The notes under the pieces: model-generated
Database searches by the model: none
Told to the model about the DNA's origin: nothing
The model's input: the letters and a program-made list of their open reading frames with translations, nothing else
Source of the DNA: Candidatus Parcubacteria bacterium
Lineage (GTDB): Bacteria; Patescibacteriota; Minisyncoccia; Phycocordibacterales; UBA2100
Assembly (NCBI GenBank): GCA_003599295.1
Contig: QZJK01000006.1
Coordinates: forward strand, 14,681-78,680
Direction of reading: 5' to 3'
Length of the DNA stretch: 64,000 nt
Made by a program: the position numbers and the translations under genes
Shown here: piece after piece, positions 21,744 through 29,819 of the stretch
Position numbering within the stretch: the first letter of the stretch is position 1
Layout of the letters: each line of letters begins with the position of its first letter

Positions 21744-21904
21744 CTTTGGCTTGGTTGCCGCTTTGTTTCCCACGTTTTCGAGATACCTCTCTAACGAGTG
21801 ACAGAACGTGAACGAAAGTTGGCTTACGCGGCACGGTCAACAGGCGAAGCCAAAGTTAGTGGCTTGGGCATGGCCGCACGAAGCGCATTAGAATTCTATA
21901 AAAA

Positions 21905-21955
21905 CCTCGCCGCGGCAGGATGTTTCCGAAGAAACTCCCGCCGCGGCGTTTGTTG
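21905..21955. terminator. bidirectional rho-independent terminator
   Basis: cctcgccgcggcagg ... cccgccgcggcg GC-rich stem with an inner gtttc-cgaa-gaaac hairpin. Flanked by tataaaaa upstream and tttgttgt downstream. Confidence 0.5.
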
Positions 21956-21975
21956 TACTCGAACCGAGGTCTGGT

Positions 21976-22677
21976 TCAGTTGACCGGGCAGAATACGCGG
22001 CTATCGACGCTGTACTTCACGTCGTACCGACGCCGGTAGGCTTCAACATGCCAACCTTTTCCTCTGCCGCTTAACCCCACCCCGCCACTCCATCGCACTT
22101 CAACGACGTGAGAGGGGAGGTAGAAGAGGTTGGATTTTCCGGTATGTTGCAGTTTGCCCGGTTCGCCATACCGTTGCGCGGCGATCATCGTCGCGATGAT
22201 AGCGCACAGAGTGCTTTCATCGAAGAGATGACGTTCGGGCAGTGCCCCTTCCATCTCGTCGTGAGAGGCACCGTCCATGTTGCCGATGTCGAAAGAGTCG
22301 ACATCGAACGTCGTCCCCGCTTCGACAGGAAAAGCTTTCGGCAGGACGACCTGCGTGAATCCTTCGAAGCGGGAGTCGACGAAAGTCAATCCCTGCCCGT
22401 TGTAATTCACGTAGAATTTCAGCGGTTCGTGCCGTGCGGAAAGCGTGATAGTAAACGACTCCCGCGGCACGAGTGTCATCATGCGACCGATGGTCTTTCG
22501 GAGAGCCTCCTCCATGTGCTCGGTGAGCTTCGCGCCCCTGTTCTGCAGAGCGCGGAGCACTGCTTTTGGATCCTTGAACTTTTCTGCAGTCCGAGGGAGA
22601 GCAGTCGCACTCGCGATGTTAATCGCTGTGCTTAACTCGGCCAGCTGGCCGGGTGAAAAGGCTGTTCCACGTGACAT
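21976..22677 (-). CDS. hypothetical protein
   Basis: 233-aa ORF with host-like GC, convergent with atpB. No motif recognised. Confidence 0.4.
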   Translation of the reverse strand: MSRGTAFSPGQLAELSTAINIASATALPRTAEKFKDPKAVLRALQNRGAKLTEHMEEALRKTIGRMMTLVPRESFTITLSARHEPLKFYVNYNGQGLTFVDSRFEGFTQVVLPKAFPVEAGTTFDVDSFDIGNMDGASHDEMEGALPERHLFDESTLCAIIATMIAAQRYGEPGKLQHTGKSNLFYLPSHVVEVRWSGGVGLSGRGKGWHVEAYRRRYDVKYSVDSRVFCPVN

Positions 22678-22887
22678 CGTGGCTGTTCCTTTTATTGCTG
22701 TTGCACCATCGCACTTAGGGCATTGCTACCTTGCTTTGCCACAGCAGAAAAAGGCACGCGTTCGAGTCGCTTTCTGCTGCGGCAAAGATTTCCTTGGCAA
22801 AGAACTCCTGTATGTTTTTACTACAAATATTCAAGAAGTCAATATTTTTCGGTAGTCCTGACGAAGAAATGCTCCAACCTCCTTAGA

Positions 22888-22916
22888 TTGCGAGATATTC
22901 ATTCTCGTGTTATAAT
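22888..22916 (+). promoter_or_regulatory. sigma70-like promoter TTGCGA-N17-TATAAT
   Basis: Read directly, upstream of the FAD-oxidoreductase gene. Confidence 0.4.
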
Positions 22917-22936
22917 ACTTCTTCTATTTTTTGTAT

Positions 22937-23983
22937 ATGAAGCGGAAATGCTTTTGGCGAAATCCTGGATATAAGGCCTGCAAACCTCTCACCGGTCATC
23001 ATAAGACACGCTATCTCATTATTGGGGGTGGTGTTGCGGGTCTCTTTATAGCGCACTATCTGCTGAAGAAAGGTGTTAAAAAAATTACGGTTATCGATAA
23101 GGGAATAATTGGCTCAGGATCTACCGGTCAATCGGCAGGCATGCTTGTGGCTCAGTTAGAGACGGCACCGATAGAAAGGTTGGCTACACTCTATGGTCGG
23201 CGCGCCGCTGTGCGATATGCGCAGGCCCTTAAAGATGCGCAAGGGGAGGTTCGGCGGTTGATCCGGAAAGGAGAAATTGCCTGCGAGTATAAGAAACACA
23301 GCCTCAAGTTTTTCAAGAACGAATCTGGAAAAGGTAAGCATTTGGAGGAAAGTATTTCGGTTAATCCGATAAAGTTCATACAGGGTATGGCGCAATACTT
23401 GCGGTCGCGAGGGGTCGTCATTTACGAAAATACTTCCTTGCGCAAAGTGCAAGAAAACATCGCGGTGACTCCGCAAGGAACCATACGGTTCGAACACATC
23501 GCGTATGCGCTCGGCACCTCAGTGAGACATAAGACTCTCGAAAATTACGTGACTACGATATGCGTAACGCGTCCGCTCTCGTCAAAAAAGATACGCAGAT
23601 TGCGCCACGCGGGCAAGGAAATGTTCTTTCACGATGAACGGCAATCTTATCTTTACGGTAAGATTACTCAGGATCGACGGCTTTTAGTGGGCTACGGCGA
23701 TGTCCGCAGAAAATCAACCGGGGCAGCGGCACGCCTCCACGTTCCTCATGTGCGGAGCATCAAACGGTATATTAGACGCGCGATTGGAGCGAATGTCTCT
23801 GTACACCGCGCATGGAGCGCGGCATACTCTCTCTCCAAGAAACCGCTTCCGTATGTGTCTGTTTCAAGAGGAATAATCGGTGGAGCAGGTACGCAAATCG
23901 CCACCATCGCGATAGCGTCGTATTTGGCAAGTGCGATTCTTGGAGAAAAACATCCTCTCAATCGACTTTTTACGGATCGGTAG
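22937..23983 (+). CDS. FAD-dependent oxidoreductase (DAO/glycine-oxidase-like)
   Basis: Rossmann dinucleotide motif YLIIGGGVAGLFIAHYL...VIDKG. C-terminal GGAGTQIAT. Start uncertain (TTG at 22931 or ATG at 22937). Confidence 0.65.
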   Translation: MKRKCFWRNPGYKACKPLTGHHKTRYLIIGGGVAGLFIAHYLLKKGVKKITVIDKGIIGSGSTGQSAGMLVAQLETAPIERLATLYGRRAAVRYAQALKDAQGEVRRLIRKGEIACEYKKHSLKFFKNESGKGKHLEESISVNPIKFIQGMAQYLRSRGVVIYENTSLRKVQENIAVTPQGTIRFEHIAYALGTSVRHKTLENYVTTICVTRPLSSKKIRRLRHAGKEMFFHDERQSYLYGKITQDRRLLVGYGDVRRKSTGAAARLHVPHVRSIKRYIRRAIGANVSVHRAWSAAYSLSKKPLPYVSVSRGIIGGAGTQIATIAIASYLASAILGEKHPLNRLFTDR

Positions 23984-28105: not shown

Positions 28106-28228
28106 ATTTATAATCGAGCAGATTGTTTCGTGTGTTATTTCCGGCACGTGTACTTAAGGTCGTAGTCTTGGCCGCCGAAGAATTTCTTTGCGAAGCGACC
28201 CTTCTTTTGTTTTGCTATACTGAAGCGC

Positions 28229-28438
28229 GTGAAGATATATCGTCGGTTCAAGAAAAGGCATCGTCTACTCCACATCATGATAGTGGCGATTGCTATCGTC
28301 ATGTTCTGGAGAGGAGTATGGTCGCTTCTGGACACGTATCTTTTGCCCGATCATTTTCTTATAAGTAACCTGGTATCAATCCTAGTCGCATTTTTTATTT
28401 TGTATCTTGACGATTTCCATCTCAAGGAGTTGGAATAA
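28229..28438 (+). CDS. small two-TM membrane protein
   Basis: 69-aa ORF with two hydrophobic helices. Weak call. Confidence 0.2.
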   Translation: MKIYRRFKKRHRLLHIMIVAIAIVMFWRGVWSLLDTYLLPDHFLISNLVSILVAFFILYLDDFHLKELE

Positions 28439-28531
28439 GTTTGTTATCGTTGCATCAGTTTCGTTTAACCCCTGAACAATTTGTTCCGAGCCTATTCGTG
28501 GGGCGTGAGTCGCATTTCAGACGTATGTTCG

Positions 28532-29701
28532 TTATACTGCCTTCTTACGAAGTGGGTCTTCCCAGCCGGGGCCTTTACGAGGGACTTGTTTCCACCTGTC
28601 GCGCTCTTCGATTGGTTCGGATCGAGCTTCCACAGGTTTCTCTATACTGGGGGTTTCTTTTCGGCGCACTTTTCCGGAGTCTATTGATACCCATTGTTTG
28701 TCGGGATGCGCCTCCATTTGTTTGAAGAATTGATCTATCGCTGGATACCCCTTGCGAAGTTCTTCTTTGCTCGGAACGCCCTCTTTTGAACCGTACTCCA
28801 ATTGCATTATCTCCAAATAGAATTTTTCATATGCATCACGACTTATAGCAGTTTTATCCTCATTGAACGCATCTTTCCATTTTGGGTCATTATCATCAAG
28901 TGTACGGAACGCAAGCACATCGTACGCTTGTATCTTTTGGGGGTCGTCAGACGCGGGGCGGCAATAGGGAACATCCGGGTCGTTAACAACATGGCAATTT
29001 ACAGAACGTTTCCAGAAATTAATGCGCGCTTCGCAACGACGGACCACATCTTCGGGTTTTTCGTCAGGATATGCATTAGCTTGAATGATACGGGTCGGGT
29101 CCTCAAATTCATACAAAACATGGTTCTTGCCGTGCTGGCGCATTTGCTCATCGCTAATACGCGCGGCCTTAGGATAGATACCCATATTACGATAATCCGA
29201 TAGAAGTCCTGCATAGGGCACGTACATCGCATCCGGAATGTTGGGATTTAGGCGAATGAGCTCAAACCCGATTGGCCTTTCGCCGTCTTGTATCATGTAA
29301 TAGCGCGCTATCTCCGGACTGAAAAAGAAACGGCTCATTGACCTGTTTGAGTCCAAATCAGTTGGGTCGGTGAAAACCGTCTTTACGATGTCCATGGTTT
29401 TCCGGAAGTCTTCCTTCGTCTTAACTTCTGCGGTGGATAGGCCCGCCGGCTCTTTTTGCGGCGCTTCTTGGCGAAAAGGCCGTGTAGGACCGCCGTTTAC
29501 TTTGTCGAGCGCGTCTTGTATCGCTGTCTCATCCTCTATCACTCGGTCACGTTTTTCCGTTGCCTCTAGCCTCGCCGCCTCATCAGTCGCCGCCTTTTCT
29601 TCAGGGGTTATCGAGGTTATCTCGGCCGCGCGAGGCTTTTCAGGAGTTGGAAGAGAGTGTATGCGCTCTTTTTTAGCATCTGGTTTCTCAAAATCAGACA
29701 T
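28532..29701 (-). CDS. hypothetical protein with charged low-complexity N-terminus
   Basis: 389-aa low-GC ORF, E/K/P-rich first 110 aa. No confident domain. Confidence 0.45.
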   Translation of the reverse strand: MSDFEKPDAKKERIHSLPTPEKPRAAEITSITPEEKAATDEAARLEATEKRDRVIEDETAIQDALDKVNGGPTRPFRQEAPQKEPAGLSTAEVKTKEDFRKTMDIVKTVFTDPTDLDSNRSMSRFFFSPEIARYYMIQDGERPIGFELIRLNPNIPDAMYVPYAGLLSDYRNMGIYPKAARISDEQMRQHGKNHVLYEFEDPTRIIQANAYPDEKPEDVVRRCEARINFWKRSVNCHVVNDPDVPYCRPASDDPQKIQAYDVLAFRTLDDNDPKWKDAFNEDKTAISRDAYEKFYLEIMQLEYGSKEGVPSKEELRKGYPAIDQFFKQMEAHPDKQWVSIDSGKVRRKETPSIEKPVEARSEPIEERDRWKQVPRKGPGWEDPLRKKAV

Positions 29702-29745
29702 AAGAAGTATCTTGTCATTCTAACGCATTTGTATCGAACAATGCA

Positions 29746-29774
29746 TTGAAAGTGTATAAAAACGATGCTAGTAT
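29746..29774 (+). promoter_or_regulatory. sigma70-like promoter TTGAAA-N17-TAGTAT upstream of atpE
   Basis: Read directly. Lies 46 bp upstream of the atpE start. Confidence 0.5.
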
Positions 29775-29819
29775 AGCGCTATAAATAGCATTAATTATTA
29801 AGTAAATTGGAAGGTACTT

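Follow-up and report, generated by a model that had tools for sequence, protein, structure and literature searches.

The genes of the F1F0 ATP synthase operon have one of the most conserved gene orders in bacteria. Flexible genomic islands and insertion hotspots, on the other side, are recognized by strain-variable cargo between conserved flanks, by deviating base composition and by trees that are incongruent with those of the core genes. In Bacillus subtilis, Blt and BltD are a spermidine efflux pump of the MFS family and a spermidine acetyltransferase, and the Escherichia coli enzyme PuuB is a DAO-family enzyme of polyamine catabolism. Bacterial homospermidine synthase (HSS; EC 2.5.1.44; 4PLP, 4TVB, 6Y87), which forms sym-homospermidine out of two putrescines with the help of tightly bound NAD+, and carboxy(nor)spermidine dehydrogenase (CASDH/CANSDH; 8H4Z, 8DEB, 4INA) are members of one superfamily with roles in polyamine metabolism. 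An hss gene has been reported in a metagenome-assembled genome of Kaiserbacteria, and polyamine genes have been argued to have been horizontally transferred between bacteria of the candidate phyla radiation (CPR) and DPANN archaea (PMC10407285). Here, a window of 64 kb, which is the whole stretch of DNA analyzed, from an ultra-small Candidatus Kaiserbacteria (Patescibacteria/CPR) was examined. In this window, a gap of about 8.1 kb with seven open reading frames (ORFs) separates the ATP synthase genes atpB and atpE. The initial annotation had described the gap as a single low-GC island that was acquired horizontally and rewired the transcription of the operon. We consider it probable that the gap is accessory DNA at a permissive hotspot, consisting of an orphan gene of a family of diversity-generating retroelement (DGR) targets and a self-promoted, modular, polyamine-type cassette that has been horizontally exchanged, and that atpE has its own, ancestral promoter.

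The gene for F0 subunit a, atpB, lies at 20970-21743 on the plus strand (Pfam ATP-synt_A, E 1.4e-40; TIGR01131 above its cut-off), and the gene for F0 subunit c, atpE, lies at 29820-30047 on the same strand (Pfam ATP-synt_C, E 5e-17). According to the ORF listing and the Pfam/NCBIfam assignments, atpE is followed by atpF, atpH, atpA, atpG, a NUDIX gene at 33667-34074, atpD and atpC. The boundaries given in the initial annotation, which were the end of atpB at 21743 and the start of atpE at 29820, and both gene calls were correct. For comparison, 19 related loci were used, taken from one genome per species after a scan with atpB and named Candidatus Kaiserbacteria, Parcubacteria or Paceibacterota, and all the proteins of the window were mapped onto them by tblastn. 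The gene order ahcY-hydrolase-atpB-atpE-F-H-A-G-D-C is common to the relatives. The spacing of atpB and atpE was 80-180 bp in 12 of the 19, including every more distant Parcubacteria-type locus that reaches atpE. The window's atpB is 66-85% identical to that of the relatives and is found in the same ahcY-hydrolase-atpB synteny, which in island-free relatives continues with atpE 80-130 bp downstream. The window's atpE is 89-97% identical to that of close relatives. Because of this shared gene order and the 12 short junctions, atpB is not a paralogue, as had been considered, but encodes the subunit a that belongs to this operon, and the adjacency of atpB and atpE is ancestral. As judged from synteny, the 8-kb accessory segment is therefore an insertion and the derived state. 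The window's nearest relatives, L002 and L005, have a clean short junction with no remnant of the cassette. In one relative, L016, the 10 kb downstream of an atpB homologue with 47% identity contain neither atpE, atpF nor atpA, which could mean a split operon or a paralogous gene. An apparent duplication of atpE in L009 holds a run of N and was taken as an assembly gap.

Four or more lineages of Kaiserbacteria were found to have the same cassette at this junction, in independent assemblies and with differing accessory genes. Since the arrangement recurs in this way, an assembly artefact was ruled out. The L032/L033 cassette contains only DAO, an HSS-like gene and MFS, while that of L020-22 contains DAO, the HSS-like gene, MFS, a gene for a 483-aa protein and a minus-strand gene for a 379-aa protein. 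Two further cassettes reach the ends of their contigs: L006 has the HSS-like gene, MFS and GNAT, and L108 has DAO and the HSS-like gene. The conserved core thus comprises DAO, HSS-like and MFS, and the fourth position varies. It is occupied by a tandem GNAT gene in the window and by a genuine HSS in L020-22 and is empty in L032/L033, and the occupants in different lineages are non-homologous. The 483-aa protein of L020 is the genuine HSS, with E 1e-148 to HSS of the PDB. Other relatives hold unrelated cargo at the junction, namely a PemK/MazF toxin pair in L004, a PNPOx-like gene in L011 and unknown small ORFs in L008 and L007; therefore, the atpB|atpE junction is a recurrent, permissive insertion hotspot. 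It resembles other flexible islands in its variable cargo, but it differs from them in lying within an otherwise near-universally contiguous operon and in having no integrase, tRNA or long flanking repeat.

Additional genes were also seen at other junctions of the operon. The NUDIX hydrolase gene (plus strand) lies between atpG and atpD with a 4-nt overlap with each, and the same arrangement occurs in three relatives (L003, L005, L008). At atpG|atpD, L020 has a gene for a 106-aa unknown protein, and in L005 an unknown ORF of 321 aa separates atpA from atpG. With these extra ORFs, the atp operon of this clade has several cargo slots.

The second gene of the cassette (24077-25318, plus strand) encodes a compact HSS-like NAD(P) enzyme of 413 aa, which was called saccharopine-dehydrogenase-like (SDH-like) in the initial annotation and scores 25.0 bits with Pfam Sacchrp_dh_NADP, compared to a cut-off of 25.1. 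It has 291 detectable homologues, among them a 100%-identical full-length record (P0001, NCBI C4556_00965), although look-ups by exact sequence gave no record for this protein or for the window's atpB. Homologues above 75% identity are Kaiserbacteria-like, and the named ones at 50-60% are almost all from DPANN archaea (Woese-, Nano-, Micr- and Pacearchaeota). Among 1.84 billion cluster representatives, only 36 clusters (50% identity) reach E<=1e-30. By these searches, the family is small, tightly conserved and uncharacterized, and no description of it in CPR or DPANN was found in the literature. In the AlphaFold2 (AF2) model (pLDDT 88), the protein has two domains, of which the N-terminal one is an NAD(P) Rossmann domain, in a fold of the Sacchrp_dh type, and Foldseek matched it to CASDH, L-lysine dehydrogenase (3abi) and HSS 6y87 with TM scores of 0.63-0.71, a probability of 1.0 and ~16% identity.

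The likeness to HSS extends to the active site. Alignment of the profile of the compact family with the genuine HSS of L020 by hhalign gave a probability of 95% and E 1.9e-8. The catalytically relevant residues of BvHSS are Asn162, Glu210, Trp229, Glu237, His296 and Glu298 (PMC8489232). Their counterparts in the L020 HSS are N169/E217/W236/E244/H304/E306, with spacings of 48/19/8/68/2 compared to 48/19/8/67/2 in BvHSS, and those in the HSS-like protein, according to hhalign, are N144, E169, W185, E193, H245 and E247. All six were invariant in 51 of 51 family members. Nevertheless, phmmer of the HSS-like protein against the HSS of the PDB gave only E 0.15 (14 bits), which is not the similarity of an orthologue, and in a neighbor-joining (NJ) tree the family is a clade apart from HSS and from a CASDH-like paralogue. 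Genuine HSS genes are co-located with the HSS-like gene, both in the L020 cassette and in L025, and this co-occurrence argues for a different substrate or product of the HSS-like enzyme. The alignments suggest that the enzyme has the same catalytic machinery as HSS, probably with a different substrate tunnel, and that it is not an HSS orthologue.

CASDH/CANSDH are the best structural matches, with TM scores of 0.66-0.71, and they have a similar length and a polyamine role. However, their sequence similarity to the HSS-like protein is marginal (E 0.0015 to 0.4), and the cassette has no gene for the partner decarboxylase CASDC. No decarboxylase domain was found in the island proteins or among recurrent neighbors, and in these respects the locus does not fit a CASDH and CASDC pathway. 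A separate CASDH-like paralogue of 383-404 aa often adjoins the HSS-like gene. In a survey of 87 loci around members of the family, this paralogue or HSS, as a second Sacchrp_dh protein, was a neighbor in 18. MFS adjoined the HSS-like gene in 18 loci, DPANN contigs included, DAO in 8, and relatives of the C-terminal half of the tandem GNAT in 4, with such homologues seen in L031, L037 and L045. In an archaeal clade of the family (L051, L059-L061, L067, L069, L070, L072, L073, L077, L078), a conserved gene for a 251-aa protein was seen on the opposite strand downstream of the HSS-like gene. It starts 11-50 nt after the HSS-like stop in 7 of the 11 loci and ~670-1190 nt after it in the other 4, and, judged by eye, its product has the look of a Dph2-type protein of diphthamide synthesis.

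The remaining proteins of the cassette were assigned with Pfam and structure searches. The calls of DAO, SDH-like, MFS and tandem GNAT in the initial annotation stood. The first gene (22931-23983, plus strand) encodes an FAD-dependent amine oxidoreductase (Pfam DAO, E 3.7e-27), and the third (25325-26560, plus strand) encodes an MFS transporter (Pfam MFS_1, E 9e-32) that resembles drug/amine:H+ antiporters. The closest solved sequences to the transporter are NorA and the vesicular amine transporter VMAT2, both weak (E 5e-4 to 2e-3). The tandem GNAT acetyltransferase (26585-28105, plus strand) has an Acetyltransf_1 domain at aa 63-167 (E 2e-22) and an Acetyltransf_9 domain at aa 232-337. It is followed by a putative 69-aa ORF with two predicted membrane helices (28229-28438, plus strand), which matches the Fuseless C-terminal region of Pfam (E 6.7e-10) and, weakly, SLATT. 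A homologue of this ORF was absent from every related locus examined, and it is uncertain that it is a real gene.

The cassette is closed by a minus-strand gene (28532-29701) for a 389-aa protein, which had been described as a divergent unknown with a charged tail. It has charged tails, there was no Pfam, NCBIfam or PDB sequence match, and a fold could now be assigned. The AF2 model (pLDDT 83) has a long N-terminal helix, and its core gave 310 PDB matches at E<=0.001 with Foldseek; all 50 of those listed were GNAT-type acetyltransferases. TM scores normalized to the target were 0.6-0.79 against small GNATs, including PaiA and N-terminal acetyltransferases. According to this model, the 389-aa protein has a GNAT fold. 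Of its 25 homologues, P0142 clearly carries a GNAT domain added at the N-terminus, and for P0144 the link to GNATs is limited to a precomputed Acetyltransf_1 match. A copy with 55% identity is found in L020 in the same position and orientation. Merging this protein with the tandem GNAT was rejected, since their profile similarity is short, weak and N-terminal (probability 8%). The combination of an efflux-type MFS with GNATs is similar to Blt/BltD and PaiA of B. subtilis: the NorA family is the one closest to the transporter, and the best fold matches of the 389-aa protein include PaiA. This likeness is weak or at the level of the fold, and the cassette has, in addition, an HSS-like synthase and a flavin amine oxidoreductase.

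Together, these findings support a cassette for polyamine synthesis, modification and transport. The amine or polyamine-type pathway proposed by the initial annotation is a good reading, as the HSS catalytic residues are kept and a variant cassette has a genuine HSS. The HSS-like enzyme would use bound NAD+ to oxidize the terminal amino group of a diamine or polyamine and would then pass the aminoalkyl group on to a second amine, so that a polyamine is formed that is homospermidine-like or longer. This product or its precursors would be N-acetylated by the GNATs, and the MFS pump would carry the cationic amine across the membrane. The role of DAO would be to oxidize one of the pathway's amines, for turnover or as a source of an aldehyde. 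A more specific proposal is that the HSS-like enzyme is a new polyamine-forming activity, in which aminoalkyl transfer yields a triamine or tetraamine other than sym-homospermidine that is possibly exported in acetylated form. This proposal is tentative and, in our judgment, rather doubtful.

Another possible explanation of the same genes, though not a likely one, is salvage or detoxification, in which MFS imports host polyamines or exports an excess, the GNATs acetylate them, and DAO and the HSS-like enzyme degrade or interconvert them. CPR metabolism is reduced, and no genes for precursor supply were found among the 30 largest ORFs in the rest of the window. DAO-family enzymes, such as PuuB, act in polyamine catabolism, and a GNAT with an MFS resembles the Blt/BltD pair of efflux and acetylation. 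In addition, the mechanism of HSS is in principle reversible (PMC8489232). Salvage does not account well for a transporter that is closest, although weakly, to the proton-antiport exporters NorA and VMAT2, or for a cassette variant that includes a biosynthetic HSS. Moreover, some Kaiserbacteria have ODC and HSS and are, thus, able to make polyamines (PMC10407285). A cassette with a biosynthetic step is, therefore, preferred here.

The composition of the gap shows that it has two parts. The cassette (22931-29701, 6.8 kb) has 47.6% GC compared to 54.3% for the rest of the window. The 848 windows of the same size outside the region had a mean of 54.2% (sd 1.26) and a minimum of 51.6%, so the cassette is the global minimum, ~5 sd low. 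The genes of the cassette have GC contents of 0.46-0.49 compared to 0.543 +/- 0.033 for other genes. In contrast, the left 1.2 kb (21744-22930), which holds a gene for a 233-aa protein, has a host-like 53.1%, and the gene itself has a GC content of 0.571 and 0.665 at third codon positions. The low-GC block predicted by the initial annotation is, thus, real, but it measures 6.8 kb instead of about 8 kb. The single five-gene island is likewise a composite, from which the 233-aa gene is separate. The shift in codon usage is modest: DAO and the 389-aa gene deviate by ~+1.9 sd, and the remaining island genes are within 1 sd. In the reading favored here, Part 1 (21744-22930) would be an orphan gene of a DGR-target family with a strong hairpin, and Part 2 (22931-29701) would be the core of DAO, HSS-like and efflux-type MFS, the variable slot and the closing divergent GNAT-fold protein.

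The history of the cassette was examined with NJ trees and pairwise identities. In core-gene trees, loci with and without the island are intermingled: the window clusters with L002 and L005, while the partner of L032 is L001. L006 and L032 are the nearest pair by atpB (84%) and by the hydrolase (66%), yet they are the furthest apart for the HSS-like protein (75%) and MFS (56%), while the MFS proteins of L006, L020 and the window group at 71-77% identity. Bacterial and archaeal HSS-like proteins are 50-60% identical, and in the NJ tree of the HSS-like proteins, sequences labelled as DPANN surround the Kaiserbacteria clade and, at a separate place, a second bacterial sequence. A lone HSS-like cargo gene (51% identity, catalytic motifs intact) was also found in L115 (4596-9838), from a 109-kb IMG/VR contig classed as viral, where it adjoins a tyrosine integrase, a ParB-like gene and a C5 DNA methyltransferase. 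Because of the patchy, tree-incongruent distribution and the DPANN-centered family, horizontal acquisition is supported as a likely exchange, and these comparisons make it appear more likely than pure vertical descent with loss. Since there is no integrase, tRNA or long repeat, the cassette was probably swapped among Kaiserbacteria by homologous recombination through the conserved atpB/atpE flanks. The route and the direction of transfer are what we infer from these patterns. The 7-nt GCATTGA duplication possibly present at the L032 borders is too short to count. A defense or phage island was rejected, as PADLOC and PHROGs had no meaningful match for the island proteins.

Vertical inheritance would require a single entry in an early Kaiserbacteria ancestor followed by many deletions, so that the patchiness reflects loss. 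It would explain why the variants all share the junction and the right-border sequence GCATTGAAA...ATGCTAGaAT, why divergence is similar for the cassette (SDH-like 75-82%, DAO 63-68%) and the core (ahcY 61-83%, atpB 65-84%), and why the GC content of the cassette has partly or fully approached that of the host in L032 and L006. We regard it as unlikely since it conflicts with the position of L006 and L032, which are the closest for core genes and the most distant for SDH-like and MFS. It also conflicts with the non-homologous genes of the variable slot, with the clean junctions of L002 and L005 and with a window cassette that is still 5 sd low in GC.

The chemistry could also lie outside of polyamines, although this is improbable. 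The Sacchrp_dh-like enzyme would then act on an amino acid, of the lysine/saccharopine type, or make an opine-type metallophore that MFS exports. L-lysine dehydrogenase 3abi and saccharopine dehydrogenases are among its fold matches, a weak NCBIfam match relates MFS to the staphylopine exporter CntE (E 4e-6, far below the cut-off), and the closest solved sequences to DAO are glycine and sarcosine oxidases, again weak (E 4e-6). This is countered by the invariance, throughout the family, of every residue of the HSS catalytic set (Asn, Glu, Trp and the Glu-His-Glu triad), and by genuine HSS or CASDH-like paralogues, which are the commonest functional neighbors. Furthermore, a Pfam scan found no nicotianamine-synthase-like or opine-dehydrogenase gene among the island proteins. 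A polyamine-type cassette, thus, remains the preferred assignment.

Two promoter-like motifs were found where they had been predicted, each with a TG extension. The first, TTGCGA-N17-TATAAT (22888-22916, plus strand), lies before DAO and was the best in the motif scan, with 10/12 positions. An element of the form ATTGCG(A/C)...GTGnTATAA(T/A) is found upstream of DAO in the window, L032 and L108, and L006 has TTGACA-N17-GATAAT upstream of its cassette. The second, TTGAAA-N17-TAGTAT (29746-29774), ends 45 nt upstream of atpE. It is part of a block at 29743-29800 (plus strand) with the -35 hexamer TTGAAA at 29746-29751 and the extended -10 TGCTAGTAT at 29766-29774, followed by TTAATTATTA. When the 90-130 nt upstream of atpE were aligned across relatives, the conserved block (GCA)TTGAAA-N17-TGCTAGAAT...TTATTAATTA, which contains cATGCTAGAAT, was present with or without the island. 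Among island-free relatives it was clear in L001, L005, L010 and L002, and the atpB stop codon of L001 and of L005 lies partly within the -35 hexamer. The block was also seen in relatives with other cargo (L007, L008, L009) and in the island-bearing L020 and L032, and the cassette variants all keep it unchanged at the right border. Because of its conservation in island-free relatives, the atpE promoter-like element predates the insertion. Tandem 8-mers of the form CTAGNNNN (e.g. CTAGAAGCTAGTCCCTAGCACCTAGAACCTA) were also seen between the promoter-like block and the atpE start in L002, L007, L008, L009, L010 and L032, and they are absent from the window's atpE upstream region.

Accordingly, the promoter in front of atpE is not new, as the initial annotation had claimed, and rewiring of ATP synthase transcription is unsupported: the insertion appears to have used an existing boundary of transcription units. 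That the insertion cut the operon and a strong new atpE promoter arose or arrived to restore expression is very improbable, for although TTGAAA-N17-TAGTAT with its TG extension lies 45 nt upstream of atpE and a strong hairpin follows atpB, the same block is found in island-free relatives, with its -35 over the atpB stop in L001 and L005, and in relatives with unrelated cargo. From the conserved block we infer that atpB and atpE-C were already separate or separable transcription units in the clade, which would explain why the junction tolerates cargo. The insertion would have been tolerated because atpE-atpC already had their own promoter at the junction. Both the cassette promoter and the atpE promoter are predicted to be active from their motifs.

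The left part of the gap contains a GC-rich hairpin at ~21904-21970, between the convergent atpB and 233-aa genes, with T-runs on both sides (dG -36 kcal/mol, z -4.8, 0 of 200 shuffles folded as well). It corresponds to the bidirectional terminator of the initial annotation and, from its sequence, looks like a terminator in both directions. Alternatively, it could be one of the hairpins that typically follow the variable region of a DGR. A perfect 15-nt inverted repeat was also found, with 100% complementary arms at 21738-21752 and 21847-21861 and 94 nt between them; the left arm overlaps the atpB stop. Chance is unlikely at such spacing, and the fold was not significant (z -1.6).

The 233-aa gene (21976-22677, minus strand) has only seven homologues and no Pfam, PADLOC or PHROGs match. 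Two of the homologues (L112 6001-8472; L113 6001-8513) lie directly upstream of bAvd and an RVT_1 reverse transcriptase. In both, the last ~110 nt, the variable region (VR), are repeated ~440 nt downstream as the template repeat (TR), and every mismatch is at a TR adenine. These adenine-only mismatches are the signature of a DGR in L112 and L113. The L112 homologue has a hairpin ~20 nt after the variable-region stop. The window's gene keeps the VR framework, with indels, at its 3' end and also has a hairpin downstream. In these points it resembles the DGR targets of CPR and DPANN organisms, but it differs from them in that no reverse transcriptase, Avd or template repeat was found within the 64-kb window. 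The gene may be an orphan or may be served in trans, and it does not belong to the cassette but occupies the hotspot as a passenger of its own.

Several of our results weigh against the combined picture of an exchanged, self-promoted polyamine cassette. With regard to the chemistry, the HSS-like protein is ~65 residues shorter than HSS (413 aa vs. ~470-480 aa; ~475-480 aa for bacterial HSS). In the alignment, the "ionic slide" of the HSS entrance tunnel (Asp94, Glu117) and the track-and-trace loop were not recovered: the segment with Glu117 is shortened, and there is a 7-residue gap at the HSS loop "CIEPWPGGYTDPN" (L020). Identity to the solved HSS and CASDH structures is ~16%. Because of this low identity, the shorter length and the missing ionic-slide region, the substrates of the HSS-like enzyme may differ widely. 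The substrates, the product and the direction of transport proposed above rest on folds, residues and neighbors, and the 30 largest of the window's other ORFs include no polyamine precursor gene (ODC, ADC, agmatinase or SpeE). Since most DPANN loci hold the HSS-like gene without DAO, MFS or GNAT, the cassette is not a fixed operon. With regard to the transfer, the NJ trees have no support values, and no integrase, tRNA or long direct repeat flanks the island (ARAGORN, Rfam, repeat search). The repeat search found only short, chance-level pairs, the island and its surroundings gave no RNA gene with Rfam or ARAGORN, and Pfam/NCBIfam scans found no recombinase domain in its proteins. The GC dip is smaller in the cassettes of L020 and L032 and absent in L006, and the HSS-like gene averages ~2 GC points below its flanks in all loci. 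Composition alone is, thus, weak evidence for recent transfer. Finally, the region has 7 promoter-like motifs compared to 10.1 expected, which is not above chance, and so the weight of the promoter motifs rests on their conservation in relatives.

Other features of the window were recorded outside the ATP synthase operon. A second island-like region (2341-7749) has a GC content of ~0.49-0.51. It contains a large serine recombinase gene (2341-4128, minus strand), which abuts tRNA-Ala (2377-2448), and a gene for a Shedu SduA_C defense nuclease (6613-7749). Two extra domains are inserted in a leucyl-tRNA synthetase of 1130 aa (43645-47037, plus strand): aa 244-392 form an alpha/beta (serine) hydrolase domain, and aa 567-686 form a NUDIX domain.

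Hotspot islands and the HSS/CASDH superfamily are of known kinds; the points of interest here are the accessory slots inside the ATP synthase operon and the uncharacterized HSS-like enzyme shared between domains. In this lineage, atpB|atpE, atpG|atpD and atpA|atpG act as slots for accessory genes, and this behavior is likely due to a pre-existing internal promoter. The locus also illustrates that a promoter beside an island need not have come with it. The HSS-like family, with its full HSS catalytic set and its occurrence in both CPR bacteria and DPANN archaea, is directly testable by heterologous expression. If the polyamine-forming activity proposed for this enzyme is real, ultra-small CPR bacteria and DPANN archaea would exchange DAO, HSS-like and MFS as a mobile trait, with which these episymbionts would produce and secrete, or else import, a polyamine that serves in their interaction with their hosts.

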